Shown one piece after another: positions 2,338 to 19,209 of a DNA stretch of 64,000 nucleotides. Position 1 is the first letter of the stretch; every line of letters begins with the position of its first letter. The stretch is taken from positions 58,290-122,289 of the forward strand of contig CAXTYC010000015.1 in the NCBI GenBank assembly GCA_964248365.1. The letters are read 5' to 3'. Under the pieces are notes generated by a model. The model was not told where the DNA came from and did no database searches. It saw only the letters and a program-made list of their open reading frames with translations. Source of the DNA: an uncultured Chroococcidiopsis sp. Lineage in GTDB: Bacteria > Cyanobacteriota > Cyanobacteriia > Cyanobacteriales > Chroococcidiopsidaceae. Both the position numbers and the translations under genes were made by a program.

Positions 2338-2722
2338 GAGAGTGTAAAGCAATTGCGATTAAGTCTTCGATTTTTTTGATGTTAGGATCGCCCGCCAAAT
2401 AGCCAATACCGCGATGCAGGTGCAGGCGAAATTGCATGGCGAGGGTTTCCTTGTCAGTGCCTAAGTTGTCATTGTAGCAGCGTTGTTTGAGGGCAAGTAG
2501 AAGGATATCTGACATTTCTCCCCCAAAGACACGCCAAGTCATCTCGACGTTGCTATCTGTTGGAATTGGCACGGGTGAGGGTATAGTTGGTTCTGCCAGG
2601 GAACGACAGAACGCCCAGCGACACAATATGTTCCATTGGTCGATTTTCGTGCTGCGTTTGAGTTTGGTAAGTTGATCTTTGGCTGTTTGGGAAAGGCGAA
2701 TTCTTTCAATAGGTGATTCCAT
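2324..2722 (-). CDS. dndE: DNA sulfur modification protein DndE
   Basis: IRLSQTAKDQLTKLKRSTKIDQWNILCRWAFCRSL...FRLHLHRGIGYL; follows dndD. Start at ATG 2722; the longer track start runs through a heptamer repeat. Confidence 0.92.
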   Translation of the reverse strand: MESPIERIRLSQTAKDQLTKLKRSTKIDQWNILCRWAFCRSLAEPTIPSPVPIPTDSNVEMTWRVFGGEMSDILLLALKQRCYNDNLGTDKETLAMQFRLHLHRGIGYLAGDPNIKKIEDLIAIALHSHGRV

Positions 2723-2774
2723 AATATTGGTAGTTGGTAGTTGGTAATTGGTATAACTCATTACCCATTACCCA

Positions 2775-4781
2775 TTACCAAAAATATCCAGGTTGTATGG
2801 TTGTTTGACGGTTGGATGAGTCGTATTTTAGAAGATATTCGCGGGCGATCGCTTCGTTTGAGCGTAGTTTTTTGACTTCGTTTTCTCCTATTTCGGTGTC
2901 CGTAGAAAGTAGGATTACTTGATGGCTGGCGGATGGGAAATATCTTTCAACTAGGTTTTGGCGGTGGGAGGAGTCAAGCCGACCTAGTGGAGTATCAATT
3001 GCTACTGGTAATCTTCTTCCTGAGACACGGGCTAATCCCCAGAGAAAGGCGATCGCCAGGAGTTGTTTTTCTCCTGCTGAGAGGCGATGTTTGGGTACTG
3101 GTTTCGAGTGCAAGTCGTAGAGGGAAAGGCTGAAGGTATGGGTGTCAATGGCGACACGATGCACTAAGTCAGATTTGTGCAGCAGGTAGCGGAAGCATTC
3201 GGTTACTTCCAACTCTAGTTTATTCAGTTTTCTGAGTGTTAATCGTTCTCGGAAAAGTTTGAGTGTTTCTTGAACTTTAGCAGAGGCGGTGATAATATGC
3301 TCGTTATTTTTGCGAGCAATGTTTTTTTCTGTATATTGTTCTAAGTCTTTTTTTGTTTTGTTAATATTAGCGGTTAATTCATCTAAACGGCGTTTTGCTG
3401 TTTCGTAGTTAGCCTTAGCTTCAACAACTTCGGTTTGTGCTTGTTCAAGCACGTCTACTAGCTTTTGATAAGCTTCTGGTGATGCAGCAGTAAGTACTTG
3501 TCTTTCAATTGTTATAATTTCTTCTTCCTTATTTTTGAGCAAGTTTATTTTTTCTTGGGCAGCATCTTTGACAGAGCGCAAGTAGTAATTTAGAATATTA
3601 GATAGTTGATTTAAAGTTTCAGTATCAGGTAATAACCAGAAATTTTCAGTTTCGGTTGTTTCTTGCTCAAGCACTTGATTTTCTTGATTGAGAAAATATT
3701 TGATTTTGTCAATCTGTTCATCTGATATAGCTAATTGACTAATCCAATTGATTAGGCGTTGATCTCGCTCAAGTAATATATCTCGTGCTATATGTGCTTG
3801 TTGACGGCGAAATTCTTGTTCTGCTTGAGATAGAGTTTTAGTAAGTAGTGGTTCAATTAACGCCAGAGGTAAAATATCAGCGGCTAATTCACACATAGCC
3901 ATCCGCGCTTGTTCTGCTTGGGCAGTTATTTCCCATTGCTGTTTTTCTAGGGTGGGGCGATCGCCTGCAATTTTACCACCTTCTGAAACGAATTTATCAA
4001 ATGCGAGTTGCTGCTGTTTTTCTGCTATTTCTAACTTCTTTTGTAAAGTCTCTAAATTTCGCGTTTCTACATTGTATTCTTCTTGTTGATGTTTCAGCTT
4101 TTGTTCGATTTCCTCTAAGTTCGCCAACTCTTGTGTATCAGCAAGCGCTTTTCGTTTACGGTTGACTAAAATTTCTAAATCAACTGCCAAACGTTCAGCC
4201 AGTTCTAGCCCTAACAGTCCGCGAATTGCATCTACTACAACTGGTGGCGGTACTTCTGCTTGAGCGAGTTCTTTAACTTGTTCACCATCAAAGAGAAACA
4301 AGTTAGAAATTCCTACTGGCAGTAAATTTTCAATATACTCATCCCAGATATTAGCTAAGGCTGATTCGATCCATTCCGTACTACCCAAAATGCCTAAGCT
4401 GTCTTTACCATCTTTAGGGTTTTTTTCCCAAGTTCGTACAATGCGGTATTGTACAGGCTTATCGTTTTCAATGTGTTCAAAAACCAATTCAATTCGAGTT
4501 TTACCTGCTGGTGGAGTATGGCTATTAACGCATTGGGTAAGAAAGTCACTATAACTCAAGTTGCCCCTCGTAGAACATTCGGCACGATGTCCATAAAGAG
4601 CAAGGCGAATAGCATCCAAAAGTGTTGTTTTTCCTCCACCATTCATCCCACCTAATAGGATGATTGGGCGAGAATTTTTATTATCGTTCTCAGGATCAGC
4701 CTGGGAATGGGGAGAGAGATTGATGACTTGTCGCCCACAGTAGGGACCAAAGTTTTGTAGTACAAGTTCGAGAAATATCAC
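2775..4781 (-). CDS. dndD: DNA sulfur modification protein DndD (SMC-like ABC ATPase)
   Basis: Walker A GMNGGGKTT, FLFDGEQ, long coiled coil, LSAGEKQ signature, IDTPLGRLDS; between dndC and dndE. Confidence 0.93.
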   Translation of the reverse strand: MIFLELVLQNFGPYCGRQVINLSPHSQADPENDNKNSRPIILLGGMNGGGKTTLLDAIRLALYGHRAECSTRGNLSYSDFLTQCVNSHTPPAGKTRIELVFEHIENDKPVQYRIVRTWEKNPKDGKDSLGILGSTEWIESALANIWDEYIENLLPVGISNLFLFDGEQVKELAQAEVPPPVVVDAIRGLLGLELAERLAVDLEILVNRKRKALADTQELANLEEIEQKLKHQQEEYNVETRNLETLQKKLEIAEKQQQLAFDKFVSEGGKIAGDRPTLEKQQWEITAQAEQARMAMCELAADILPLALIEPLLTKTLSQAEQEFRRQQAHIARDILLERDQRLINWISQLAISDEQIDKIKYFLNQENQVLEQETTETENFWLLPDTETLNQLSNILNYYLRSVKDAAQEKINLLKNKEEEIITIERQVLTAASPEAYQKLVDVLEQAQTEVVEAKANYETAKRRLDELTANINKTKKDLEQYTEKNIARKNNEHIITASAKVQETLKLFRERLTLRKLNKLELEVTECFRYLLHKSDLVHRVAIDTHTFSLSLYDLHSKPVPKHRLSAGEKQLLAIAFLWGLARVSGRRLPVAIDTPLGRLDSSHRQNLVERYFPSASHQVILLSTDTEIGENEVKKLRSNEAIAREYLLKYDSSNRQTTIQPGYFW

Positions 4782-4862
4782 AGTGAGTAGTGGGTAGAGA
4801 AGTAGAGAAGTAGAGACGTAGAGAAGTAAAGAAGTAGCAATGCTACGTCTCTACTTCTCTAC

Positions 4863-6467
4863 TCACTCTTTTACTTGAAACTTTATACTTGCCCAACTTT
4901 GAGGTTTTTCAGGTTCGACATTATTTTCAGTAACAACATCCCCCAAAGTTAGCTGCTTTACTTTTTCAATATCACCTTGGGTAACTGCTGCTTTCAAATC
5001 GCGTTTAAAATGAGCATTCTTAATTGCTTCTGCTTGAGAACGGGAACTGGTGGCAAAACATTTCTCTAAAGTGTCGTATATTCCCACGCGACGAGCCATC
5101 TTGCGATACTGACGTTCTGTGTCCAATAGCTTTGCCATGAGTTCTAAATGCATAGCATCACCCTCACAGATTTCTTCTAGCACAGCCCATTCATCGCTAC
5201 CTAATAGACTATAGCCAGCATCAGGACGCGGATCTATAAAAGGTACGCCCGTGACTTCTTGATAGATTCGAGGTAAACTATCATCAAATTCGTGTTTTTC
5301 TTCTAACCAAATACGCCGTATTTCGCTCATTTCTTCTAGGGTAATTAGGGTGATGTCGCACATATTTTCTGGTGCTGTGCGACGGATTTTTGTCTGTGCT
5401 TCTAAGACTCGTCTTAACCAATGTTCTCGCCAATATTTGGTATATGGACCAGGAATGGGTTCAACAGAAATGTCGCCATCTAAATTGCGTTCAAATAGTT
5501 GGACTTCACCCCAGATTCTTCGGAAGTCTCTCTTGTCGCGATCGTTTTCAATATCTAATTCATTGCGAATATCGAGTAGAGGTTGCATCCATTCTTTATC
5601 CTCGTCATTCTGGATCATTGCCTCCATTGATTTATCCTTACTCACCATTGTGCAAACCCAGCAGCCAAAGCGAGAATCACCACAACTGGGAGTAGAAGTA
5701 TCGACAACTAAGGGACATTCGTTATCTGCTGTTGCACCTCGGTACATAGTGAATAAGTCTTTGTTGCTGTGTCCCCAAGGGTTTTGCCACTGCATGAGGT
5801 AAAGCCAAACTTCATCTGTTAGCCAGTCTTCTATGGGAAGGTAAATCAGTGAGTTAGGTCGGTTGGGATTAGTATTGATGCGATCGCGTACTCGCCACTC
5901 CCGATGCTTAGCCATATTAGCAGCGCGATTGGCACTTTCAGCTTTGCGTGTACCTAGCACAAGAATTACTTCACCACTAGAGCGAATTACTGCACGGATG
6001 AAGCTGTCAGAAGGTTGAATCTTCAATCGTTCAGTACACCATCTAAATCTGTTACGAGGTGCTGGGTAGCCTTTGCCAATTAAGCTTACCCAAAAGGTGT
6101 CTTTAATTGCGGGATAAAGCAAATGGGGTTCAACTGGCATCCCTTGCTCTTGCGCCGCTAGTTTCATCTGTTTGAGTGAATTGCTTACCCAAGCCGAGAC
6201 GATTGGATTTTCTACCAGCGTATCTGTTGTAATGACATGAATAGTCTTGGTTCGCTTGGAAGGTGGGAGTGAAGCGATCGCGTTCCAGACTAGCTGTAGA
6301 GTAGCACTAGAATCTTTTCCACCGCTATAACCTAAACACCAGGGTATTTCGTCTAAGCAGTATAACTCTTGAATTTCCTGTGTGAGAGATTGGATATTTT
6401 CCACCAAATCTGCTACAGTACGCGCTTGCTGCTGATTTTGATTTTCTGGCTGTTGTGCTGTAGGCAT
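4863..6467 (-). CDS. dndC: DNA phosphorothioation sulfurtransferase DndC (PAPS-reductase-like)
   Basis: YSGGKDS PP-loop, RWCTERLKI, ECPLVVD..TPSCGDSRFGCWVCT Fe-S cysteines. Confidence 0.95.
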   Translation of the reverse strand: MPTAQQPENQNQQQARTVADLVENIQSLTQEIQELYCLDEIPWCLGYSGGKDSSATLQLVWNAIASLPPSKRTKTIHVITTDTLVENPIVSAWVSNSLKQMKLAAQEQGMPVEPHLLYPAIKDTFWVSLIGKGYPAPRNRFRWCTERLKIQPSDSFIRAVIRSSGEVILVLGTRKAESANRAANMAKHREWRVRDRINTNPNRPNSLIYLPIEDWLTDEVWLYLMQWQNPWGHSNKDLFTMYRGATADNECPLVVDTSTPSCGDSRFGCWVCTMVSKDKSMEAMIQNDEDKEWMQPLLDIRNELDIENDRDKRDFRRIWGEVQLFERNLDGDISVEPIPGPYTKYWREHWLRRVLEAQTKIRRTAPENMCDITLITLEEMSEIRRIWLEEKHEFDDSLPRIYQEVTGVPFIDPRPDAGYSLLGSDEWAVLEEICEGDAMHLELMAKLLDTERQYRKMARRVGIYDTLEKCFATSSRSQAEAIKNAHFKRDLKAAVTQGDIEKVKQLTLGDVVTENNVEPEKPQSWASIKFQVKE

Positions 6468-6783: not shown

Positions 6784-8382
6784 ATGAATCACAGTGCAGC
6801 CGATCCAATCGCTGATATCGCTAGTGAGTACCTGGAACGGGAATTGAGAGATCAAAAGCTACTCACTTTACTGCTGGATAAGTACCTGCAAAAAAAGGAT
6901 CGAATTCTGGTTCAGAAAACAGAGATGGGTGGAACCCAGGCTTATGTAGGGTCAGTTAGTTTGGAATGGTTTGCAGGAAGAGTTCACTTTGCGTCTTGTT
7001 TACCTCTGCTTCAGCAAAAATATAATCCAATGACGGATAATATTGAAATTGACGCGGATAGTATTGATGAAATTCAGCAGCGTCCTCTTGATTGGTCGCG
7101 TCAAGTACCTTTAGCTCATTATCTGGTAGCGAGGACAAACCACAAGTTTCCGCCAGTGCTAGTAGTGATTAATCAACCTTGGGTGGATAATCCCAAAGCT
7201 ACCCAGTGGGATAGTGAAGGACGCGCGATTAAATCTACTACTGATTTCTCCCCACTGGATCAAGACGGTAAGGTCGGTCTACTCAATATTTCTGAGGAGG
7301 ATGTCACCATTTATGCACTGGATGGTCAACACCGACTGATGGGGGTGCAGGGGTTAATGGAGTTGCTCAAAACTCGCAAACTTCAGCGATATAAGAAAGA
7401 TAAATCACCTGATGATTCTTTCATTACAGTGAGTGATTTGATCGAGCAGTACCAAGTAGATCTAGCTTACCTACAAAGTTTACCGAAAGAAAAAATTGGA
7501 ATTGAGTTTATTGCAGCTGTTGCTGCTGGTGAAACCCGCATCGAGGCAAGGCGACGTGTGAGATCGATCTTTGTTCATGTCAATTTGATGGCTGCACCCT
7601 TAACTAAAGGTCAGTTGGCACAGTTGGATGAGGATGATGGTTTTTCGATTGTGGCGAGAAAAATTGCTGTGTCTCATCCGCTTTTGGAACAGCGAGGCGA
7701 TCGCAAACCTCGCGTCAATTGGAATAGTGCGACAGTTGCGGCAAAATCAACGGTTTTGACTACGCTGCAAGCTCTTAAAGATATGTCTGAGCGATATTTG
7801 CAGCATAAATTTCCTCATTGGAAACCCTTGGACAAAGGTATAGTCCCCATGCGACCAGAGGATGAGGAACTGGAGGAGGGGATTTCGGAATTTCTGAAAC
7901 TCTTTGATTATTTAGCAGATTTGCCTAGTTATAAGATTCTTGAAGACGAGGATACGCCGCCATTGCGACGGTTCAGCTTTGAGAAGGATGGAGGCGAAGG
8001 AAATATGCTTTTCCGTCCTGTTGGTCAAGTAGCACTAGCTCAAGCTTTGGGAATTCTGGTTTATAAAAAAGGATTTTCGCTGGCAGACATTTTTAAGAAG
8101 CTGCGGAAGTTTGACTTAGAGGGCGGATTTAGTAGTATGGAGTACCCGCAATCTCTTTGGTATGGTGTGTTGTATGACCCGAATAAAAAGCGAGTGCAGG
8201 TTGCCCGACGGGATTTAGCAACGAAGTTACTAATTTACATCCTGGGTGGAATTGAAGATCGGATGGAACGGGCAGAACTTCGCAAGGCTTTAGCTGATGC
8301 TAGAACAATTGAAGAACAATCGATTAGCTTTGATGGTAAGTTTGTTGAACCCAAGCAAGTGGGACTTCCACCAGTGCTGTAA
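6784..8382 (+). CDS. DGQHR-domain protein (DndB-related, long form)
   Basis: QQRPLD, ALDGQHRL and SIFVHVN motifs; divergent from dndC. Confidence 0.88.
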   Translation: MNHSAADPIADIASEYLERELRDQKLLTLLLDKYLQKKDRILVQKTEMGGTQAYVGSVSLEWFAGRVHFASCLPLLQQKYNPMTDNIEIDADSIDEIQQRPLDWSRQVPLAHYLVARTNHKFPPVLVVINQPWVDNPKATQWDSEGRAIKSTTDFSPLDQDGKVGLLNISEEDVTIYALDGQHRLMGVQGLMELLKTRKLQRYKKDKSPDDSFITVSDLIEQYQVDLAYLQSLPKEKIGIEFIAAVAAGETRIEARRRVRSIFVHVNLMAAPLTKGQLAQLDEDDGFSIVARKIAVSHPLLEQRGDRKPRVNWNSATVAAKSTVLTTLQALKDMSERYLQHKFPHWKPLDKGIVPMRPEDEELEEGISEFLKLFDYLADLPSYKILEDEDTPPLRRFSFEKDGGEGNMLFRPVGQVALAQALGILVYKKGFSLADIFKKLRKFDLEGGFSSMEYPQSLWYGVLYDPNKKRVQVARRDLATKLLIYILGGIEDRMERAELRKALADARTIEEQSISFDGKFVEPKQVGLPPVL

Positions 8383-8490
8383 TTGGCAGAGTTAGCGAAG
8401 CATTTTGCAGTGTGGTTTTCACCGATGCCACAGGATAACGGCATTGCATATTATGTTGGCTAACCTTTACCAATTTGTATAGATATTTTT

Positions 8491-9684
8491 ATGGTTAAAA
8501 CGAACGAGGATAGTACCAATAACCCCCAGTTAGAAATGAATCAAAGGCTTGATTCCATAATTGAGCCTTACTTCTCAAAGCATCATCGAGAACGGTGCTA
8601 TCCTGGACTTATTTTTCAGCAGGGTAAACGAAAAATGGTGCAAATTAATGTCCCTGCTGGAGACTTACCTGTTCTTCTCCAAGCTAAACCATCCACTGAC
8701 AATAATCCTGATTCTGGAAAAAATCGTCCAGAGGTCAAAGGTCATGCTGATGAAATCAAAAAATATGTTGTTAATCGTGTCCGAAATGGAAAACCTTGGA
8801 TTTTAGGAACACTGACTGCAAATGTATCTCCAGAAAAAATAACAATTATTGAATTAGGTAGAGGTATTTGCTTAATTGTTATTCCTCGTGGAGTTAAGTT
8901 AGATATTACTGATGGTCAGCATCGTAAAACTGCAATTCATGAATTGATTGAAGGTTCACAAAGCGAGTTAATTGGTGATGACGATTTTCCCATTACTCTG
9001 GTTTTAGAGGGTGACTTCCATCAGTGCCAAACTGACTTTAAAGATATGGCTCAAACTAGGCAACTAGATAAATCTTTGCTGCTGTCATTTGGTGAATTTT
9101 ACGGTCGAGTTGGCATTACAAAAAAGTTAATAGAACAAGTGCCAATGTTTCAGGGTAAGACAGAGAAGATTAAATCAACTCCTGCCACTAAACAAAAGTT
9201 AATCTACACAATTAATTACATAGCAAGATTTGTAAGTTGTGTTTTTGCTGATGACCCAATTAATGAACTTCAAAATTTTGAAGTCAACGAAACATCTGAA
9301 GCTTTAGTTAACTGCCTCAATCAGTTTTTCTCAGAATGTCAAAATACACGAGATATTTTTGAGAAAAATGTTGAAGAATTAACTATTGATGAAGTAAGTG
9401 CATTTAAGGAAGAATGCTTACTAGGTATAAGCGTTGGACTGGAAGTTTTGGGAAGATTGCTGTACTGTACTTATGCCCCAGATAGCAATCATTTTAATGA
9501 AGGAAAAGTTTTACAACTAGCGCAGCAGATTGATTGGTCACGAGAAGCCGACCTTTGGAGAGACAACATTGTTAGGCTAGATCCAAAACCTAAAAATCCA
9601 GATAAGCCTTATAAAATAGCTTTTGGCGCAAATGGTATAGCAACAGCAGCCAAAATTGTAAAAATGAAGCTGGGATGGATATAA
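8491..9684 (+). CDS. dndB: DndB-family DGQHR-domain protein
   Basis: NRPE...H, WILGTLTAN, ITDGQHRK and QTDFKDM motifs; within the dnd island. Confidence 0.78.
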   Translation: MVKTNEDSTNNPQLEMNQRLDSIIEPYFSKHHRERCYPGLIFQQGKRKMVQINVPAGDLPVLLQAKPSTDNNPDSGKNRPEVKGHADEIKKYVVNRVRNGKPWILGTLTANVSPEKITIIELGRGICLIVIPRGVKLDITDGQHRKTAIHELIEGSQSELIGDDDFPITLVLEGDFHQCQTDFKDMAQTRQLDKSLLLSFGEFYGRVGITKKLIEQVPMFQGKTEKIKSTPATKQKLIYTINYIARFVSCVFADDPINELQNFEVNETSEALVNCLNQFFSECQNTRDIFEKNVEELTIDEVSAFKEECLLGISVGLEVLGRLLYCTYAPDSNHFNEGKVLQLAQQIDWSREADLWRDNIVRLDPKPKNPDKPYKIAFGANGIATAAKIVKMKLGWI

Positions 9685-9714: not shown

Positions 9715-10188
9715 TCAAGATAGGAATTTGCTTAGGTCAAATTCCTCCTCGTGTTCTTCTTGCTGTACTCGTTCAGAACTAAGAATTAATAGAAGACGTT
9801 CTGAATAGTCTACCGCACCCCGAAATTCTACTTGTAATATTTCAAGTCCACCATTTGCATATTCTTCAAAAATATAATTACGTTTTTCATAACTCTTTTC
9901 TTCTAGCAAAGATAGAATTTTTATATCTTTAGTTTCATTAATCGCTAGTAAATTTATTACGGTATCATATCCCCTAACAATAAATTGTTCTTGGGGAATT
10001 GGAGAAGGTTCTCTTTTGGAGATTTCCCCTAAAGGTACTCTCTTATTATGCTTTGCACCCAAAGCAGCAGCAAACACAATTACATCAGCATAAGTTTGAA
10101 AAGGACCTGTTGCACCATCTGCTGATGTTAAAGCCTTGACTAATTCAGCCTTATCTTTAGCTACTCTAATTCTGCCTGTTTCTACCAT
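9715..10188 (-). CDS. DNA phosphorothioation-associated protein 4 (PbeD-like)
   Basis: GPFQTYADVIVFAAALG...FEEYANGGLEIL motifs typical of this family; downstream of the SMC-like ATPase. Confidence 0.85.
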   Translation of the reverse strand: MVETGRIRVAKDKAELVKALTSADGATGPFQTYADVIVFAAALGAKHNKRVPLGEISKREPSPIPQEQFIVRGYDTVINLLAINETKDIKILSLLEEKSYEKRNYIFEEYANGGLEILQVEFRGAVDYSERLLLILSSERVQQEEHEEEFDLSKFLS

Positions 10189-10291
10189 AATTTCGAGATC
10201 TAGTTCCTAGCAATCTTAACTGAAAGAATAAAACGATCGCACTAGGTTCCCTTCTGTGTGTGGTTCGTTCAAAAACGCGATCGCACCGTAC

Positions 10292-10843
10292 CTAAACAAA
10301 AAGATCGTCCACCCCCATCACCCATCCTGGTACAGCAGGTTCAGCGTCAGCCACCTCACCACGACGATATACTTGCGGCTTTTGGGGGTTGCTAGAACGA
10401 TATACCCTGACAACTTCTTCTTTAAGTACATCTACATCCCATACAACCAAAGTACCAGCAGCAAAGTAATCTAGACGTTTTGCTGCTATAGCCTTTTCTG
10501 CTGCATCGCCGTAGTCATTCTCACTTTTTACCTCGGCTGCAAACACAGGTGCGCCTTCTAAAAACTTCCCCCCCGTAGGTTTACCCATGTAGAATGCTGC
10601 ATCAGGACTAAAAGAACGACGATTTGGTAGATTAACGATAAAACCAACATTATCAGGCAAAGCATAACCCTTATTGGTGCGGCGTTCATACTCGCGCAGA
10701 CTCACATATATTTCACCGCCAGCACGTCCTGGTAAAAAACCTGTAGCCGCCATAATTATTAATTGTCCATTCACAATTTCCGCTTTACCGTCTTCGGGTA
10801 CGCGATATAAATCTTCAATAGTTGCTTCAGTTCTTGTACTCAT
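10292..10843 (-). CDS. Uma2-family (PD-(D/E)XK) endonuclease
   Basis: KAEIVNG, FSPDAAF, AEVKSEND, KRLDYFAAG. Confidence 0.9.
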   Translation of the reverse strand: MSTRTEATIEDLYRVPEDGKAEIVNGQLIIMAATGFLPGRAGGEIYVSLREYERRTNKGYALPDNVGFIVNLPNRRSFSPDAAFYMGKPTGGKFLEGAPVFAAEVKSENDYGDAAEKAIAAKRLDYFAAGTLVVWDVDVLKEEVVRVYRSSNPQKPQVYRRGEVADAEPAVPGWVMGVDDLFV

Positions 10844-10963
10844 AAACACCTGACAATAAATCGGAATTACTTACCTTCAAACTTATGCGATCGCCCCTCT
10901 CTTCTCTTCCCTCTGCGTCCTTTGCGTCTTTGCGGTTCGTTTCTCTTCAAACCGCACTCGCAC

Positions 10964-11533
10964 TCAGCTTGAAAACTGCACATCTTCATACAACAGCGAC
11001 ATAGGAAAGCGAAAATCAACGCTAGTTAAATGCACTTCATCCCCCTCTTCATAGGGATGAAGTTCCCACAAACCTCTGTCATTTAGCCGGAAACACTCTA
11101 CACTAACTTTTTCCGCATCAATTAAAACGTATTCTCTTAAAGTCTGTATTCGACGGTAGTGAGTAAATTTACCGCCTCGGTCATAACCTTCTGTACTAGG
11201 GGATAGCACTTCGACAATTAAACAAGGATACTCAATGAATTTAATCGCTTGTCTATCTCTTTCATCGCAACTCACCATCACATCTGGATAGTGAAATAGT
11301 CCATCCTGGGATACACATACTTTCGCATCTGCCATATAGGTACGACAACCACCCCCTCGCAGGTGGCTTTTTAATGCCGAAGCTAGATTAAGGGCAATGG
11401 TAGTATGGGGAATAGTACCCCCAGTCATCGCAAAAACTTTGCCGTTGACGTACTCGTATTTAAACTCTTGGCGTTCTTCCCATTCCAGGTATTCCTGGGG
11501 AGTCATATAATTTCGGTCTGGACTGGCAATCAT
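10964..11533 (-). CDS. Uma2-family endonuclease
   Basis: [35 protein letters not shown]. Confidence 0.93.
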
Positions 11534-11591
11534 AATTTAATACCTTGTGGTCTATAAGAACAATATTTCTAGCAACTCGTCACGGCTTAGA

Positions 11592-11801
11592 CTAGCATGA
11601 GTGGCTACGTCGTTTAGAATAACGATTGCGGATCACTTTAGGACGAATCTGTTCATCAGGGAAATGACAACGTACCGCGTCGCGCAGCATATCTTTAAGA
11701 GTGTCGAGGTCCGAAGCTTGGGTGAAAATTGACTCTCCGAGTGCGCGTGCAATATAGCCACCATCAACATCATCCTCAATCAAAAACACAATTTCACTCA
11801 T
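11592..11801 (-). CDS. HicB-like small protein with atypical C-terminus
   Basis: EIVFLIEDDVDGGYIARALGESIFTQA..L..L..M.RDAV.CHF is a HicB-like N-terminal fold; no hicA seen adjacent. Confidence 0.72.
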   Translation of the reverse strand: MSEIVFLIEDDVDGGYIARALGESIFTQASDLDTLKDMLRDAVRCHFPDEQIRPKVIRNRYSKRRSHSC

Positions 11802-11840
11802 TATTTGTTTCCTTTTTTCTACCTAAGATCGCATTCACCC

Positions 11841-12488
11841 TTAACCGAATGTTTGTAACAACCAGCGATTAATCTCCCCATCGTCTTGTGTTTCACTGCG
11901 TTGTAAAGCGGATTCTACCAGTGCGATCGCTAATCCTGGTAATACCAATGATTCTTGAATTTCACCACTACGTCCTTCGGAAATTTCAAAGGCAATAACG
12001 TCACCAGCTTTAACATCAACTACCCAATATTCCTGCACTTCTGACTGTTCATAAAATAAACGCTTCATTCCCAAATCATCGTTTACAGATGTTGCGCCAA
12101 TTTCGACTACCAACTTTGGCGATTGAAACTCATTCAAATTAATTGGTGTATTTGTTCTTGGTGGCAATTGAAATTCTGAACCGATATAATAAGCTAAATC
12201 AGGTTGAAATTCACCAGCACCAGGTTTACGAAAACTAGCATTAATTAATTCAACAAGTCTGATATTCCTGAGAGTGGCAAATAGTTTAACCACACTAGAA
12301 ATAATTGAATTTTCCCTTGCATGAAGTGGACCAACTGCTGACATTTCAATCCTCATGTAGCCGCGATAGTAATAAAACTTACCTTTTTCGTAATCTGGGT
12401 TGTCTGCCAATGCTAGAAATTCTGACCAGCTTGCTTTCACCCAGGTATCAATTTCTAATGTCTGTGTAGTCAGAGATGAATTAACCAT
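11841..12488 (-). CDS. Uma2-family endonuclease
   Basis: FQPDLAYY, LVVEIGATS..DD...KR..Y, EYWVVD. Start ATG 12488 overlaps the upstream ATPase stop. Confidence 0.9.
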   Translation of the reverse strand: MVNSSLTTQTLEIDTWVKASWSEFLALADNPDYEKGKFYYYRGYMRIEMSAVGPLHARENSIISSVVKLFATLRNIRLVELINASFRKPGAGEFQPDLAYYIGSEFQLPPRTNTPINLNEFQSPKLVVEIGATSVNDDLGMKRLFYEQSEVQEYWVVDVKAGDVIAFEISEGRSGEIQESLVLPGLAIALVESALQRSETQDDGEINRWLLQTFG

Positions 12489-14550
12489 GACGTTCCACCT
12501 CGATAATTTCCGTATATTCAAACTCGTTCGGACTTTGCCTAACTAAAGGATAGCGTCTACCACCTATATCAATAGAATCTTCTTGACAATCTGGTTTAGA
12601 AGAATAGTAAGTAAGCACATATTCCCTACCAATTCTGTTTGCCATTTCTGCTTCTACTTCACCCCGCCACTGTGTCTTAGTGACTAAAACTACCAATTGA
12701 TTCGCTAATTTTGGAATTATATTTGCAATTTGCCGTCGATTAATTTGATCTAAACTACCAAAGGGTGAATCCATTACAATGGGGAATGTGCTACTATCTG
12801 GAACCATCAACATCTTCTTTTCACTCCATTCCCGCACTCTGTCAATGATGCTACCGATAAAAGACAAACTTAGGATTTGATTTTCTCCAGTAGAAGCTGC
12901 AACAGGCATTTCTAAACCCGCTGTATTTTCTACCAATGATAGTTCATATTTATCGGTGATTTTTGGTAGATATGGAGTAAATGAAATCTCCCTAAATATT
13001 TCTTGTACTCGCTTTTCTAACTGCAAGCGAAATTGTTTTTCTTGCCGATACCTTACTTCAGTTAAACGCTCAATAGCATCTCCAGTTGCTGCAATACGCC
13101 TTTGAGCAAGGGTTTGCTTCTCTTCATTCAGCTTTTGCTTGACAATTTGTTTATTCAAGCCTTCAATTTCAGCTTGTAAATTAGTAATCTGCTGCTGATT
13201 TGCTCCTTTGTCTATGTTTAAGTCGCGGATTTTTTCTTCAATTCCATCTAGCCGCTTTTGCAGGTTTCTAATTTCTTCACTGGGATCTTTTCGCAACCGT
13301 TCTTGAATGTTATCTAACTCGGATTCAATTTCAGAAATAGTTTGTCTTAATTGAGCAATTCTGGCTTGCTCTCTATCAACTTCTGACCAAAATACTGGTG
13401 CTTGTTTATCAATTTCATCTACCTGTGCGCTCATGCGAATAGCTGTTTCTTCTACGGCTGAAGAACCTGCTCTATCCAGCCAGTTTCTCACGCGATCGCA
13501 AGATGAGCTACCCTCATGTAAATCAGCACCACAAATACAGCGTTGTTGTGTTAATAACTCACTCACAAATTCTCGTGATATTCCAGCAGTTAACTCGCCT
13601 CGCTGCTTCAAATCATTGACTATTGCTCGAAACTGTGCTGTTGTCTCTGACAATAATACTGTGTAACCTCTAGTTGAAATTGCTCGTTTTAAAGCTTCCT
13701 TACTTTGTTTTAAGTTGTCTTGATTTGACTTTTTTAGCTTTTCTAACTCCTGTCGTCTTGACTGCAATTCCTTCGCAGCACTCAGTTCTCGTAAACGATT
13801 ACTCGTTTCTTTTTTGATTGTCTCTTGATATTCCAACTCTTGACTAATTTCACTTTGTCGGCTATTTATTCGTTCAATTTCTTTTGCGACTTTATCTTGC
13901 TGTTTGAGTAGCTGCTTAGTTTCAGAATCGCCAATTACTTTTAACTCGTTGTCTAAATTTCTCTTCGCTTCTCCCAAATGCTTAATAGCACGATTTAACA
14001 CCTCCACACCTAATAGCATTTTCGTAGCTTCAGCAATTTCAGCTTTTTTATCAGAACGAACGATTTGCTCAATTCGTTCTCCATCAAAGAAGAAATATTG
14101 ATGTAAACTACTTGGTAAAATTTGATTAATTATTTCGTCTGGGTGTTGTGGTGGTAAATACCAGCATCCATCATCCCCAGCTATCTGCATAAATAAGTCA
14201 CTTCTACCCGCCTCAAAGTCACTTTCATTCTTATACACACGACACATCCGCCTCGCACGGTAGCTTTTAGCGTCATGTTCCCAGCCAATCTCTACCCAAC
14301 ATTCTACAGCTTCTCCCGATTTTGCTTCGGCGATCGCGCGTTTATTTACTAGTTGTTCAACCGAAGCAAAAGCTGCACTAAATTTCTCGTACAATACCCA
14401 TGTAAAAGCATTCAACAAGCTCGTTTTTCCAGATCCATTGTTACCGTGAATTACGGTTGTGTTGCTATTGCTTCCCCATGCAAGTATTATCTCTGGTGTC
14501 TTGCCATAAAATGAGCGAAAGTTGCAAAGTTTGAGCGAAGTTAGCTTCAT
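12481..14550 (-). CDS. SMC/Rad50-like ABC ATPase with CxC hook (DndD paralog, PbeC-like)
   Basis: Walker A GNNGSGKTS, FFFDGER, coiled coils with central CICG, ASTGENQ signature, VMDSPFGSLD. Confidence 0.88.
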   Translation of the reverse strand: MKLTSLKLCNFRSFYGKTPEIILAWGSNSNTTVIHGNNGSGKTSLLNAFTWVLYEKFSAAFASVEQLVNKRAIAEAKSGEAVECWVEIGWEHDAKSYRARRMCRVYKNESDFEAGRSDLFMQIAGDDGCWYLPPQHPDEIINQILPSSLHQYFFFDGERIEQIVRSDKKAEIAEATKMLLGVEVLNRAIKHLGEAKRNLDNELKVIGDSETKQLLKQQDKVAKEIERINSRQSEISQELEYQETIKKETSNRLRELSAAKELQSRRQELEKLKKSNQDNLKQSKEALKRAISTRGYTVLLSETTAQFRAIVNDLKQRGELTAGISREFVSELLTQQRCICGADLHEGSSSCDRVRNWLDRAGSSAVEETAIRMSAQVDEIDKQAPVFWSEVDREQARIAQLRQTISEIESELDNIQERLRKDPSEEIRNLQKRLDGIEEKIRDLNIDKGANQQQITNLQAEIEGLNKQIVKQKLNEEKQTLAQRRIAATGDAIERLTEVRYRQEKQFRLQLEKRVQEIFREISFTPYLPKITDKYELSLVENTAGLEMPVAASTGENQILSLSFIGSIIDRVREWSEKKMLMVPDSSTFPIVMDSPFGSLDQINRRQIANIIPKLANQLVVLVTKTQWRGEVEAEMANRIGREYVLTYYSSKPDCQEDSIDIGGRRYPLVRQSPNEFEYTEIIEVERHG

Positions 14551-14720
14551 TGCACAGCTTCCTTGACTATGTTTAAAATATCATCGTTGATATGTCCTTG
14601 GCTTTTCTTATCTAGTCTGCTTTTTTCTATTTGACATACTCGCTCAATAATTTGCTTTACTTCCGGCGGTGCGCTGTTAATTGGCTCCTGCACGTCATGC
14701 ATGATCGATTCATTTGTCAT
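14547..14720 (-). CDS. 57-aa small protein coupled to the CxC ATPase (PbeB-like)
   Basis: Below the ORF-track cutoff: MTNESIMHDVQEPINSAPPEVKQIIERVCQIEKSRLDKKSQGHINDDILNIVKEAVQ*. Its TGA overlaps the ATPase ATG (ATGA). Confidence 0.82.
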   Translation of the reverse strand: MTNESIMHDVQEPINSAPPEVKQIIERVCQIEKSRLDKKSQGHINDDILNIVKEAVQ

Positions 14721-14787
14721 AGCAGTAAAATTAATTGCTATGCATTATTTTATACATTTAAATTACCGCATGACTAGGGTGCGTCTG

Positions 14788-14952
14788 TTGTGTTGCACAG
14801 GTTTATGATGATTGTGTCACGCCTCGACGCAAAGGCGCAAAGCGGAGCCTCTTCGTAGAGTAGGCGCTAAGATACTAAGGGAAACGGGCATAGTTTCTAG
14901 TATCTTTGAGTGAGAATAAGCTCAAAGTTATCTCGCTTATTGTGCAATGTCT
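14788..14952. mobile_element. MITE-like repeat, degenerate copy
   Basis: TTGTGTTGCACA...TGTGCAATGTCT imperfect termini; interior (GATGATTGTGTCACGC...GGCGCTAAG...GAATAA) resembles 17017-17144. Confidence 0.6.
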
Positions 14953-14956
14953 ATTT

Positions 14957-15458
14957 TGTGGCGTTCAAATTCTAATTGAGTGCAAAAAAAAATTTTGTTT
15001 TTTGTCTGCTTGGTGATATTATTAAATTAGCCTAGATGGTTTACTTAATAGTCGGAATATTGGCGTTTATCAAAAATAGATTATATCCCCATTGTTAAAT
15101 AGTACCACAAGAGGGAAAATAATAAAATTAGCAATTACAATTTTTTATTTCGCTGCCAATATCCATAAATTTACATTTAGGTTTCCCCACTACCTCTTGT
15201 TACTCAGAACAAAGGTTAAAAAATTATTTTAAGGTGGGCATGGGTGGCATACTGTACTGTGGTGTTTAAATTGAAAATATTTGCCCAAAAAAATTTTGTT
15301 TTTTAGTCGGCTTGGTGATATTATTAAATTAATCTAGATAGTTTAATTAATAATGGAAATAGCGAGATTTAAAAATTCGGGTCTATATCTCCATTATAAA
15401 ATAATATCATTAAATTCAAAAGTGATCGTGTCGCTCATTACAATTCTTGATTTCGCTG
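14957..15458. repeat. Two diverged ~200-bp non-coding direct repeats (14957-15155 and 15258-15458)
   Basis: Colinear shared blocks AAAAAAATTTTGTTTTTT, GCTTGGTGATATTATTAAATTA, CTAGAT, TATATC.CCATT and ATTACAATT.TT.ATTTCGCTG at ~301-303 bp offset. Confidence 0.85.
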
Positions 15459-15510
15459 AAAATTGAAGCTGTAGGTGGGCAATGCCCACCCTAGGATTAC
15501 TACGATTACT

Positions 15511-16965
15511 TTAAATATCTAACAAACCATATTTTTTCTGTAAATTTAGTAATTTGATTCGGGCTTCTCCGGCGTTGTCTGCCAAATCTGCAAACTCGAC
15601 AAATCGCTTTAACTCTTTACGCAGCAGATTGCGTTCAACTTCCCAAGTTTGTCGATCCAATTCGGGAGGTAAGACAATCATATCGAATAAAGTGGCGCGT
15701 TCTTTGCCTGGTGATGGGCGTAAAATTCTGCCTCGACGTTGCACAAATTGGCGGGGGTTGCTGCTACTTGCAAGAATTACAGCAGTTTGAATTGCTGGAA
15801 TATCTACACCTTCGTCTAAACACCGAATTGCTACTAAACCCTGCAAATCACCCGTTTCAAATTGTCGTCGTAGGTTTTCTCGTTGTGCTAGGGGTGTCTT
15901 TGCCGTATAGGTGTTAACTCGGTAGCCTAGTTCTACACCTAGCATTCTAGCTACAGCTGCAAGTTGGCGATCGCTTTCTTGACTGGTTGCACCCTCGACC
16001 GTACCATCACCACAATAAAATAAAGTGTGGCTAGTATCAAGACGGTTTATCATCAACTCTCGCAAAGCCTGCAATTTGTTTGCTGCTGCACCGATTAATC
16101 TAGCTCTTTGCATCAATAATGGTGTCACATCACCGTTTGCACCTTCTTCTTTTGAGCCAAGTACCCAGCCAATCCTAGTAGTTAATCGAGCATATGCCCC
16201 CGCTTCTGCCTGGGTCAAGTCTACCAGAATTGGGTAATAAAGGTAATGAACTAGCGCCCCTTGGCGGATAGCATCTCCCAAGGTGAGTTCTGGTTGTAAA
16301 ACAGAACCAAAGTAATCGAAGATAAAAGAGGTTCCTTCTTCATCAAAATACCTTTCTGGTGTGGCAGATAAGGCGAGGCGCAGCCCAATTGTACGTGGTA
16401 AACTTTCCTCCAGGCGAGTAGCACCTAAGTTATGTGCTTCATCTCCGATGATTAGGGTTTTGTCGGGGAAATATTTCAGCTGCGACTGAAAGCCTTCGCT
16501 GATCAAGGTAGAATTTGTTGTGATGACTGTGACAAAGGAATTGCTACGCACATTGTACAATGCGGTTGATAATTGACTTTGCCAGTTGCGGACATTTTCA
16601 AAAGCTAAGATTGGCTGTAAACCAAATTTCTCACATTCTCGCGCCCATTGGGTGACTAAGTGCCGATAAGGGCAAACTACCAGCAAGACTTGCAAGCCGA
16701 TTTGTTGGTATAGTTGAGATGCGATCGCCAATGCGGTAATTGTCTTGCCACTACCAGTCGCCATTTTCAGCGTACCTCTACCGTTATTGGCAAACCAGTT
16801 AGCAACTGCTTGTTGTTGGTATTGCCGCAATTGGATAGATGGGGGTATCCTAGGACATCCAGGTAGTGGCAGTCTGGGTACTGAATGGGGCTGATACTTG
16901 CCCTTATTTTCGCCTGCGACTACTAATTTTAAGCTTTGCCGCTTGGCTTGCTGCGTTAAATACAT
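15511..16965 (-). CDS. SF2 DEAD/DEAH helicase of the 'DNA phosphorothioation system restriction enzyme' type (PbeA-like)
   Basis: LRQYQ, MATGSGKT, DEAH, LSATPER, CLDEGVDIP, QFVQRRGRILR. Start set at ATG 16965 (track: 17007). Confidence 0.87.
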   Translation of the reverse strand: MYLTQQAKRQSLKLVVAGENKGKYQPHSVPRLPLPGCPRIPPSIQLRQYQQQAVANWFANNGRGTLKMATGSGKTITALAIASQLYQQIGLQVLLVVCPYRHLVTQWARECEKFGLQPILAFENVRNWQSQLSTALYNVRSNSFVTVITTNSTLISEGFQSQLKYFPDKTLIIGDEAHNLGATRLEESLPRTIGLRLALSATPERYFDEEGTSFIFDYFGSVLQPELTLGDAIRQGALVHYLYYPILVDLTQAEAGAYARLTTRIGWVLGSKEEGANGDVTPLLMQRARLIGAAANKLQALRELMINRLDTSHTLFYCGDGTVEGATSQESDRQLAAVARMLGVELGYRVNTYTAKTPLAQRENLRRQFETGDLQGLVAIRCLDEGVDIPAIQTAVILASSSNPRQFVQRRGRILRPSPGKERATLFDMIVLPPELDRQTWEVERNLLRKELKRFVEFADLADNAGEARIKLLNLQKKYGLLDI

Positions 16966-17016
16966 TATTCGAGACTCACTACAATCTAACTCAAGAACAC
17001 CAGACATCTATATTTT

Positions 17017-17144
17017 TGGCGTTGCACAGATTTAGGATGATAGTGTCACGCAATAGACGCTAAGGCGCTAAGAAAAATTAGTTAGCTTTTAGAATCTTTA
17101 AGCTTGAATAACTAGAAAATCATCACGTTTATTGTGCAACGCCA
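17017..17144. mobile_element. 128-bp MITE-like element with 12-bp terminal inverted repeats
   Basis: TGGCGTTGCACA ... TGTGCAACGCCA perfect inverted termini; related copies at 14788 and ~35541. Confidence 0.7.
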
Positions 17145-17149
17145 CATTT

Positions 17150-17761
17150 TTAGTTACAGTTGCGCCAGACACCGATGAGGGAACCTTGCACCTGCACTTG
17201 TCTAGCCGTAACTTCTATGGGTTTGTACTTGGCATTTGCTGGCTTGAGGGTGACGCGATCGCCTTTACGATAAAAGCGCTTTAAAGTTGTACCATGTCCA
17301 TCTACACGTGCAGCAACAATAGTGCCGTTTTTCACCTGTTCTGGATCTGATATTGGACACATGATCACTACATCACCTTCGGTAATATAGTCTTCGATCA
17401 TGCTGTCACCCATTACCCTTAAGGCAAAAGATTTGGGTGGTAAAAACAAGCTAGAAAAATCCAACTGTTCTACTGCATCTGTAAACGGTTCCACTAAACC
17501 GCCTGCTGCTATAGCACCTAAAACTGGGATACCATGTTGCCTTGCTGGTGGTTGTAAAATCCGAATTGTCCGCGCTTTGCCTTCTGTCCACTCAATATAT
17601 CCTTTAGCGCGTAAATGTTCCAACCGACTTTGAACAGGTGCTGGCGACTTGAGTTGCATCGCTTGCATCATCTGTCGAATTGATGGTGAATGCTGGTACA
17701 GCCGAACATATTCGGCTAGCCAGTCATAGAGTTCTTGTTGAGCTGTTGTCAGGGGTTCCAT
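17150..17761 (-). CDS. lexA: SOS repressor LexA
   Basis: N-terminal HTH (PSIRQM...SPAPVQSRL), IAAG cleavage site, GDSM Ser and TLKRF Lys; ATG 17761. Confidence 0.96.
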   Translation of the reverse strand: MEPLTTAQQELYDWLAEYVRLYQHSPSIRQMMQAMQLKSPAPVQSRLEHLRAKGYIEWTEGKARTIRILQPPARQHGIPVLGAIAAGGLVEPFTDAVEQLDFSSLFLPPKSFALRVMGDSMIEDYITEGDVVIMCPISDPEQVKNGTIVAARVDGHGTTLKRFYRKGDRVTLKPANAKYKPIEVTARQVQVQGSLIGVWRNCN

Positions 17762-17792
17762 AATTTGTAGTGATTTTCTCACTAACCTACAT

Positions 17793-17806
17793 AGAACATT
17801 CGTACT
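17793..17806. promoter_or_regulatory. LexA box upstream of lexA (autoregulation)
   Basis: Minus strand AGTACGAATGTTCT matches the cyanobacterial consensus RGTACNNNDGTWCB, ~30 bp before the start. Confidence 0.85.
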
Positions 17807-17951
17807 ACATAAATGCCCCTGATGGCAAAAAAATTATTAATCAAGCAGTCAGAATTCAGGAGTCAGGAGTCACAATTGTGAATATTTGTTTTCTTATTTC
17901 CCCTTGTCCCCTTGTTTCCTTGTCCCTAGCCCCGCGCTTCCTCTGGTTCCC

Positions 17952-18872
17952 CTAGCCCCCAGCCCCTAGTAAACTTGCCAATAAAGCTTTTTGGGCGTGC
18001 ATTCTATTTTCTGCCTGATCCCATACTCTTGATTGGGAGCCTTCGATCGCCTCATGGGTGATTTCTTCACCACGATGGGCTGGTAAACAGTGTAAAACAA
18101 TTGCCTCCCGATCTGCAATACTCAAAAGTTGTTCGTTTACTTGGTAGGGTTGAAAGATGGGAATACGGGAATTTGCTTCTGCTTCTTGTCCCATACTTGC
18201 CCAAACATCAGTATAAATTACATTAGCTCCTTTAGCAGCAACTTCGGGTTCTTCGGTTACAATTACCTCTGTTTGGGGAAGGGCGATCGCTTTTGCTTTC
18301 TCAACCATCGCTGCATCCGGTTTAAATTCGGCAGGTGTAGCAATTCTGACATTCATTCCTACCAATGCACAGCCTAATAGCAAAGAATGAGCGACGTTAT
18401 TACCATCACCCAAATATGTTAATGTCAAGCCTGCCAGACTGCCAAAACACTCTTGGATTGTGAGTAAATCTGCCAAAATCTGACAAGGATGCTCTAAATC
18501 AGTCAAAGCATTCACTACAGGAATTTTGGCATAGTGAGCAAAGGTTTCTAATTGCTGCTGCTCAAACGTGCGAATCGCTAAAATATCTAAATATCGATCT
18601 AAAACTCGCGCTGTGTCTTCGACTGGTTCGCCGCGACTCACTTGGGTGGTACTGGTATTAAGATCGATCACTTGTCCACCTAGCCCGTACATTGCTACGG
18701 AAAAACTCACTCTGGTACGAGTGGAAGCTTTGTAAAACAATAGCCCTAAAACTTTATTGCATCGTAGGTTCAATCCTGATTTCAAATCTGCTGCTAATTG
18801 CAGCAGTTCTTGAACTTCCTCTGCGCTCAGATCTGCCAGACTTAATAAATCTCTTCCCTTCAATGCTGCCAT
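17952..18872 (-). CDS. argF: Ornithine carbamoyltransferase
   Basis: STRTR, HPCQ, YTDVWASMG and HCLP motifs; ATG 18872. Confidence 0.96.
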   Translation of the reverse strand: MAALKGRDLLSLADLSAEEVQELLQLAADLKSGLNLRCNKVLGLLFYKASTRTRVSFSVAMYGLGGQVIDLNTSTTQVSRGEPVEDTARVLDRYLDILAIRTFEQQQLETFAHYAKIPVVNALTDLEHPCQILADLLTIQECFGSLAGLTLTYLGDGNNVAHSLLLGCALVGMNVRIATPAEFKPDAAMVEKAKAIALPQTEVIVTEEPEVAAKGANVIYTDVWASMGQEAEANSRIPIFQPYQVNEQLLSIADREAIVLHCLPAHRGEEITHEAIEGSQSRVWDQAENRMHAQKALLASLLGAGG

Positions 18873-19209
18873 GCTTGTCAGTAAACAGTGAAGAACAATG
18901 CACGAAATGAAAATTCTCACAGCAAGATTTTGCTGTGTTTAGCTAGCTGTGTCACAAAAATTCTGATTTTAAGACAGTAGCAGATTTTTTGAAGTTAGCA
19001 CAGTCGGAAAATGTGGATTTGCTGACTTTAGCGATCGCAAGATATGAACCGCAAAGACGCAAAGAGCGCAAAGGAAGAAATACAAAGAAATGTTAGCTTT
19101 TGCTAATGTCATAAATCAGTATTACTGAGTATGGCTTTTCTCTAGTCACTGGTTCCACCCGTTTAAAGCTTGCCAAAACATCTGTGTATGTGCTAATATA
19201 GTTAATTGT

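Follow-up and report, generated by a model that had tools for sequence, protein, structure and literature searches.

The archaeal PbeABCD system of Haloterrigena jeotgali A29 is described by Xiong et al. (2019, PMC6459918), in the part of that paper available, as giving protection that depends on DNA phosphorothioate (PT) modification and proceeds without cleavage of viral DNA, with residual resistance in the absence of pbeA. The accessible supplementary tables of the same study list cyanobacterial dndCD-PbeAC loci, with PbeA measuring approximately 1.3 kb at some loci and 2.1 kb at others. In the available portion of Rakesh, Aravind and Krishnan (2024, PMC10853773), the HKD domain is found in the vast majority of CxC ABC-ATPase/clade-2 DndE systems and PbeD is equated with clade-2 DndE; the words 'Uma2' and 'cyanobacteria' do not occur in its main text. 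The accessible part of Jian et al. (2021, PMC8569181) reports no dndFGH in cyanobacteria, and 'pbe' does not occur in the main text as available. A 2025 review (PMC12707154), in the part at hand, calls the restriction event obscure and regards cyanobacterial PT systems mostly as solo modifiers, as does the available text of PMC8569181. Here we analysed a 64,000-nucleotide (nt) stretch of an uncultured Chroococcidiopsis sp. (contig CAXTYC010000015.1, positions 58,290 to 122,289, hereafter the window), which carries a PbeABCD-type module beside dndCDE whose superfamily 2 (SF2) helicase lacks the PLD (HKD) nuclease domain.

An earlier sequence-only reading had described this helicase as a short form without a PLD domain, and this was confirmed: its Q-motif begins at residue 46, and the sequence contains no HxK motif. 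Against the PADLOC PbeA models the helicase aligned only from position 241-261 to the model ends (E 1e-160, matched positions 241-681 of 682), leaving positions 1-240 unmatched, and the PLD-bearing ortholog of genome G141 (G and L numbers are our own handles for genomes and loci) spanned the same models end to end. Helicase motifs Q, I (Walker A), II (DEAH), III, V and VI were all intact, and the score against TIGR04095 was 665.5 bits (cut-off 600).

The identification of the whole cluster as a PbeABCD-type module also held, since hidden Markov model searches with PADLOC matched PbeA and PbeC, and TIGR04095 and TIGR04062 exceeded their curated cut-offs. The ATPase scored 1175 bits against the PbeC profile PDLC02753, and among its orthologs the CICG/CLCG hook and Walker B were present in 67/67 and Walker A in 66/67. 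The protein of 57 amino acids (aa) had no match in Pfam, NCBIfam or PADLOC, and neither did the copy from the PLD-intact G141. It was conserved in a 34-row alignment and lies immediately 5' of the ATPase gene in most loci, PLD-intact ones included, and is assigned as the PbeB/SP counterpart by its position, size and conservation. Protein 4 matched TIGR04062 with 202.8 bits. Its AlphaFold model (pLDDT 82) found DndE structures as best structural matches (7X4E, Z 8.8, rmsd 3.4, 111 aligned residues; 5WTU, Z 8.6), followed by other ribbon-helix-helix proteins, and DndE was ranked first in Foldseek with a weak E of 0.42. Protein 4 is thus predicted to have a DndE fold, in agreement with the equation of PbeD with clade-2 DndE mentioned above. 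For every core and Uma2 gene, the pairwise ratio of nonsynonymous to synonymous substitution (dN/dS) against close relatives fell within 0.06-0.15 (0.085 for the helicase), with dS of 0.7-1.9 and partly saturated. The core genes are under purifying selection.

The features of the locus are as follows.

15511-16965, minus strand: PbeA-family SF2 helicase, 484 aa from the ATG at 16965, a start aligned with homolog starts
14721..15510, no strand: intergenic gap of 790 nt, which contains two copies of a unit of approximately 150 nt, spaced by 302 nt, and a repeat that is dispersed genome-wide
14547-14720, minus strand: 57-aa small protein in the PbeB/SP position, overlapping the ATPase start by 4 nt
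12481-14550, minus strand: CxC-clade ABC ATPase (PbeC), with PADLOC PbeC profile match and CxC zinc-hook motif
11841-12488, minus strand: Uma2 gene U1 (PF05685), with an 8-nt overlap at the ATPase stop
11552..11801, minus strand: decayed hicB-hicA pair (hicB body 11592-11801, hicA tail 11552-11620)
10964-11533, minus strand: Uma2 gene U2 (PF05685), of a slot-resident lineage common to Nostocaceae loci
10292-10843, minus strand: Uma2 gene U3 (PF05685), of a narrow slot-resident lineage
9715-10188, minus strand: Dnd-associated protein 4 in the PbeD position (TIGR04062), a DndE-like tandem ribbon-helix-helix protein by prediction
6784..9684, plus strand: two DGQHR/DndB-like genes (TIGR03187, PF14072) between the module and dndC
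802..6467, minus strand: dndC, dndD, dndE and a putative TIGR04096 methyltransferase gene (TIGR03183, TIGR03185, TIGR03184 and TIGR04096 above cut-off)
17150..18920, minus strand: argF-lexA, genes commonly found next to the helicase on its upstream side in Nostoc-like and Chroococcidiopsis-like genomes

Two other explanations of the missing domain were rejected. A mis-called start hiding a PLD domain was dismissed because lexA lies immediately upstream and the best 120 homologs measured 419-527 aa. A split or relocated PLD gene acting in trans was also searched for; the PLD domain of a close ortholog, searched across the genome, matched nothing. The PbeA-type PLD domain was likewise not found in 42 of the 66 genomes of the order that carry the module (see below), nor in G292 or G315, two genomes of another family outside the order. 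In the other 24 it belonged mostly to other, longer proteins or to a second Pbe-like set with a helicase approximately 36-40% identical. Such distant, PLD-intact sets, with a 640-aa ATPase, were seen in L152, L153, L154, L155 and L236, and in G173 the second set adjoins HNH and dndC genes.

PLD-intact orthologs do exist in other cyanobacterial groups, among them proteins assigned by their sources to Pseudanabaena, Leptolyngbya and Trichocoleus, with helicase domains 62-76% identical. In a tree of 63 helicase domains, from which near-duplicates had been omitted (12, then 21 more), the 24 short helicases of the window's order formed one clade (100/99) nested among the PLD-intact cyanobacterial long forms. 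From these sequences, the PLD domain is judged to have been lost once in the order, and lineage-wide. The 45-residue leader of the helicase is likely a remnant of the PLD-helicase linker; its motif E-K-x-x-Y occurs also in the linkers of the long forms. The short helicases of G292 and G315 were placed elsewhere in the tree, which suggests a second, possibly independent PLD loss; a single origin of all short forms is not rejected by the approximately unbiased test (p 0.09). These two genomes (L175, L176) show a compact cluster of short helicase, small protein, ATPase and protein 4, in which neither Uma2 nor dndC was found.

The distribution of the module was then followed in 221 genomes sampled evenly from the phylum, 78 of which were other members of the window's order. 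We take the order shared by these relatives to be the Cyanobacteriales of GTDB. The ATPase was present as a single copy in 66 of the 78, and outside the order in two genomes, one of them with a partial copy; these 68 and the 12 ATPase-negative genomes of the order made up a follow-up search set of 80. A helicase ortholog accompanied the ATPase in all 66 positive genomes of the order; in 65 its frame was open and encoded 451-550 aa, in G074 it was interrupted, and every intact copy was the short, PLD-less form. Protein 4 was found in 66/66 and dndC in 65/66, two of the latter being incomplete copies at the end of a contig. The 12 ATPase-negative genomes contained no helicase ortholog, no protein 4 and a single dndC. 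Of 66 genomes sampled from the order with dndC, 65 carry the module. The co-retention with dndC holds even where the module genes are scattered round the chromosome. Indeed, the cluster is broken up in several families, and in complete genomes such as G008, G077, G133, G161, G183, G211 and G213 its genes lie megabases apart; in G077 the helicase lies at 3.02, the ATPase at 0.86, protein 4 at 1.89 and dndC at 0.29 Mb. Occasional decay was also noticed, where insertions interrupt the helicase or stops split the ATPase and protein 4 (L186 of G074, L219 of G348, L039). The PLD-intact orthologs are patchy within their groups and an intact dndC is often missing there. Outside the order the link to PT is looser in general: no dndC above cut-off was detected in G141, G254, G269, G247, G281, G292 and G315, two further genomes have a broken dndC and three an intact one.

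The system and its loci are already catalogued, with a table of PbeAC loci from cyanobacteria published in 2019. No published statement of an order-wide single PLD loss with dndC co-retention, or of a role for Uma2, was found in the literature search; the supplement of Rakesh et al. or an earlier ABC-ATPase classification may list PLD-less forms.

The reading that we favour, at somewhat less than an even chance, is a nuclease-free PbeABCD-type complex, a PT-coupled and non-cutting motor that would stall unmarked invading DNA without cleavage. It builds on the family identities, the preserved motifs of helicase and ATPase, the lack of a PLD domain, the single-copy co-retention with dndC and the purifying selection. 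Because every intact copy sampled in the order is devoid of the usual DNA-cutting domain, the helicase is likely a non-cutting motor, and a non-cutting block is favoured because the tested archaeal relative protects in a PT-dependent manner without visible cleavage and stays partly active without pbeA. If DndDE and the model of Rakesh et al. are taken as a guide, a DndDE-like scanning core made of the ATPase dimer and protein 4 would load on DNA and read sites, and the small protein and helicase would join this complex. The helicase would translocate along the DNA, driven by ATP, while the complex responds to the PT status, and replication of unmarked DNA would be blocked with no cutting, as judged from the archaeal system.

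Several observations weigh against this non-cutting motor. As the genomes are kin, the 66/66 represents one evolutionary event followed by retention. Within the order, G097 had no dndC match, and outside it the short-helicase lineage of G292 and G315 had none either; the dndC family model was above cut-off in only one of eight module genomes there, and with 7/8 lacking a match, coupling to PT is not obligatory for the family. In the available text of Rakesh et al. (PMC10853773), cleavage is inferred from the HKD domain to be part of the action. Uma2 genes of unrelated lineages keep turning up near the locus, in 17 of 50 loci between dndC and dndD and in one genus on the upstream side of the helicase, and the long linkage of U1 may reflect a real accessory role, like the backup effectors of Rakesh et al. 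Further unrelated Uma2 matches (7-32) were present in all five genomes checked, and 69 in the genome studied here; since they persist in every genome checked, an unlinked nuclease partner is possible. Finally, the inheritance, being single-copy, near-universal and dispersed, resembles housekeeping more than defence.

The last point leads to a rival in which the module was domesticated after the loss and serves PT-tied chromosome upkeep, such as placing or maintaining marks or removing oxidised PT sites and stalled forks, with no anti-invader action. We consider it doubtful, and yet it ranks close behind the non-cutting block because of the inheritance pattern and the lexA neighbourhood. The single copy in 66/78 genomes and the gene content kept though scattered over megabases agree with upkeep, and the helicase frequently keeps its place behind lexA where it is separated from the ATPase (e.g. 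L185). Vertical inheritance of dnd in Cyanobacteriales is reported, and an antioxidant origin proposed, in the accessible part of Jian et al. (2021, PMC8569181). On the other hand, the slot between ATPase and protein 4 and the flanks draw defence-type genes (HNH, GIY-YIG, AIPR, AbiE, ParE, HicAB), the sole tested relative is antiviral, and 12 of the 78 genomes are devoid of the whole module. Regulation by LexA was rejected: in a motif search, a LexA box was detected upstream of the helicase in 2/98 loci versus 78/78 upstream of lexA, and none was detected upstream of the small protein. A more specific version, in which the ancestor of the Cyanobacteriales shed the Pbe nuclease and the module has since been kept as a single-copy, PT-reading motor for chromosome maintenance, seems to us rather unlikely. 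If true, the supposedly 'solo' PT systems of cyanobacteria would have a dedicated reader that does not restrict.

The sequence-only reading had instead proposed that the nuclease is supplied in trans, possibly by exchangeable Uma2 proteins. All three Uma2 genes of the window scored above the PF05685 cut-off, and it was confirmed that U1 overlaps the ATPase stop by 8 nt (ATGGTTAA, 12488-12481); U1 overlaps or abuts this stop across four families of the order. The survey bore out the enrichment of Uma2 in the ATPase-protein 4 slot: Uma2 occupied it in 48 of 69 loci, compared with 0/61 for a neighbouring slot of similar total length (the 69 being those with both genes among 80 fetched, mostly Nostoc), in 25 of 40 contiguous loci of a broader sample (67 fetched) and, for the window's own family, in 5 of the 14 contiguous loci (18 fetched). 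The three sets overlap in part and their loci are kin.

The slot genes are not random drifters from the 69 genomic copies, an origin rejected because each is nearer to slot genes elsewhere than to any paralog here. U1, U2 and U3 belong to three distant Uma2 subfamilies, whose identity to slot genes of other genomes reached 65% for U1 and 80-84% for U2 and U3; the best paralogs within the genome were 47%, 56% and 28% identical, respectively. Of the top 20 genome matches of U1, 19 lie directly after the ATPase; U2 falls in a cluster of 56, every member of which is in the slot, and U3 in a slot cluster of 27, with U3 itself in one of the 80 sampled genomes. An exclusive clade of slot U1 genes was not obtained, as non-slot relatives are interspersed in the tree. 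The Uma2 genes are not exchangeable cassettes, because they form fixed slot-resident lineages that were differentially lost. Nostoc-like genomes carry a fourth Uma2 lineage between dndC and dndD (L018:18281-18901 and 16 other loci).

That a slot-encoded Uma2 docks on the helicase or ATPase and provides the cutting lost with the PLD domain is improbable in our view. The frequency in the slot, the overlap or abutment of U1 with the ATPase stop, the purifying selection on all three (dN/dS 0.14 for U1) and the unrelated Uma2 genes by dndC-dndD (17/50) and beside the helicase in a few lineages would fit such a partner. However, U1 orthologs (54-59% identical) follow the ATPase in PLD-intact G254, G337, G344 and G223, i.e. 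in 4 of 10 such loci, where the helicases keep HEK..D and GSxN; G344 and G223 show the same 8-nt overlap, and a fifth of the 10 has a different Uma2 in the slot. Due to this shared position, U1 likely predates the PLD loss. At ortholog thresholds of E 1e-65, 1e-72 and 1e-45 for U1, U2 and U3, 32 of the 66 PLD-less genomes had no ortholog of any of them (one of the 32 has a frameshifted U2), the ATPase directly abuts protein 4 in PLD-less G011, G071, G375, G357, G292 and G315, and in eight genomes with dispersed genes Uma2 stood beside the helicase in one and beside protein 4 in none. At the putative active site, PD and E are conserved, and the canonical lysine of ExK is not conserved in U1 or U2 (U1 has an invariant downstream lysine, and the U3 lineage K or R at the canonical place). 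The nuclease activity of Uma2 is only predicted, and the available part of PMC3424549 reports its context as generally conserved in cyanobacteria. Since U1 stands in PLD-intact loci, many PLD-less genomes are without slot orthologs and dispersed helicases mostly have no Uma2 neighbour, the part of the proposal in which Uma2 replaces PLD was not supported. The Uma2 genes are likely optional, long-resident, conserved and dispensable accessories of the ATPase-protein 4 junction, and U1 may be a co-translated backup effector, not a PLD replacement.

Similarly improbable is that a different, unlinked or variable nuclease completes the module. The candidates would be an HNH protein of approximately 313 aa after protein 4, or a PLD-helicase paralog. 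The former, an HNH_2 protein 3' of protein 4, was observed in L018:13837-14778 and 36 other loci, and also in four PLD-intact loci; it may be the wHTH-SAD-HNH enzyme of Rakesh et al. As to the latter, some PbeA-type PLD domain exists in 24/66 genomes, and G355, with the closest ATPase, has a truncated 579-aa PLD-bearing PbeA of a distant paralog group directly after protein 4 (L215:8542-10281). The genome of the window has neither an HNH_2 ortholog nor a PbeA-type PLD domain, and no candidate tracks the module one to one. Where HNH_2 is missing, a second DGQHR gene is often at that place, as in the window. Recurrent two-gene cassettes, either DGQHR-like with GIY-YIG or DGQHR/DpdB-like with HNH (L012:13586-16267, L053:13226-15453), are inserted between protein 4 and a 532-aa DGQHR gene.

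Regarding the layout of the locus, all eight ORFs from helicase to protein 4 lie on the minus strand in the order that had been claimed. The adjacency to dndCDE was also borne out, as dndC, dndD and dndE follow beyond the two DGQHR genes, with the dndC end 3.2 kb from protein 4. Among 43 ORFs of the window (17 + 26), no match to a DndFGH PADLOC profile was detected, and TIGR03237 and TIGR03238 (DndFGH) were not found in the 99.97% complete genome, in a search without positive control. In contrast to the gene order, a single operon was not shown, because the 790-nt repeat-bearing gap splits the helicase from the 57-aa gene; scans of the locus for sigma-70 promoters and terminators gave chance level only, and in many relatives the module genes are dispersed. 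The intergenic regions 14721-15510, 16966-17149 and 10844-10963 contain short repeats with 34-59 BLAST matches each genome-wide, and these were rejected as part of the system, being genome-wide dispersed elements. Among named loci, Chroococcidiopsis and Nostoc-like ones are the closest.

The gene between U1 and U2, previously read as HicB-like, turned out to be a 69-aa ORF in which the 3' end of hicB is fused, in a different reading frame, to the final approximately 22 codons of hicA. Intact overlapping hicB-hicA pairs, with the partner a HicA_toxin (PF07927), are present in relatives (L208, L209, L212, L213). By this comparison, an internal deletion is seen to have left the hicB body and hicA tail, and HicAB is not intact. 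In other genomes this slot is occupied by genes for ParE and HicA toxins and for PIN, AbiE, S-layer and beta-propeller proteins; an SLH + DUF3370 protein of approximately 632 aa recurs there in several genera (L035:12179-14077 and 14 other loci). In L132 and L133, of one genus, a 670-aa TIGR04096-like methyltransferase homolog stands just after the ATPase, replacing protein 4. Elsewhere in the window, 45575-48031 and 60937-63465 encode a UvrD-like helicase and a second SF2 helicase, likely ordinary repair genes.

The locus bears on a disagreement about whether PbeABCD cuts DNA, with no cleavage seen by Xiong et al. (2019) and cleavage inferred from HKD by Rakesh et al. (2024). An order in which PLD was lost a single time, with purifying selection on what remains, amounts to a natural nuclease-null version, and the dispute becomes directly testable because PLD-intact orthologs, with helicases up to 76% identical, can serve as controls. 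The description of PT as 'mostly solo' can be set beside the present data, with dndC in 65/66 module genomes and the module in 65/66 dndC-positive genomes.

When compared with PbeABCD of A29, the locus has the same components, namely helicase, small protein, coiled-coil ATPase and a protein of approximately 150 aa, in the same order beside dndCDE. It differs in the helicase without PLD, the Uma2 genes and toxin-antitoxin remnant between C and D, the 790-nt gap after A, and the vertical, single-copy and often dispersed inheritance. With the CxC ABC-ATPase/clade-2 DndE systems it shares the CxC hook ATPase, the DndE-like partner, the small protein and the SF2 helicase, as well as standalone nucleases nearby, read as backup effectors in the accessible text of Rakesh et al. 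(PMC10853773); unlike the vast majority of those systems, the order sampled here has no HKD/PLD domain on the helicase. The name of TIGR04095, 'DNA phosphorothioation system restriction enzyme', implies a nuclease and is misleading for the helicase of these organisms, which has no nuclease domain; a TIGR04095-type gene was treated as a DNA-destroying type III enzyme in the available part of a Microcoleus genome paper (PMC8546630). The PLD-intact cyanobacterial orthologs have the same gene order, with U1 in some, and keep HEK..D and GSxN in an N-terminal domain of approximately 240 residues. By these comparisons, the module of the window descends from PbeABCD and would work like it, minus one defining feature, the PLD domain.

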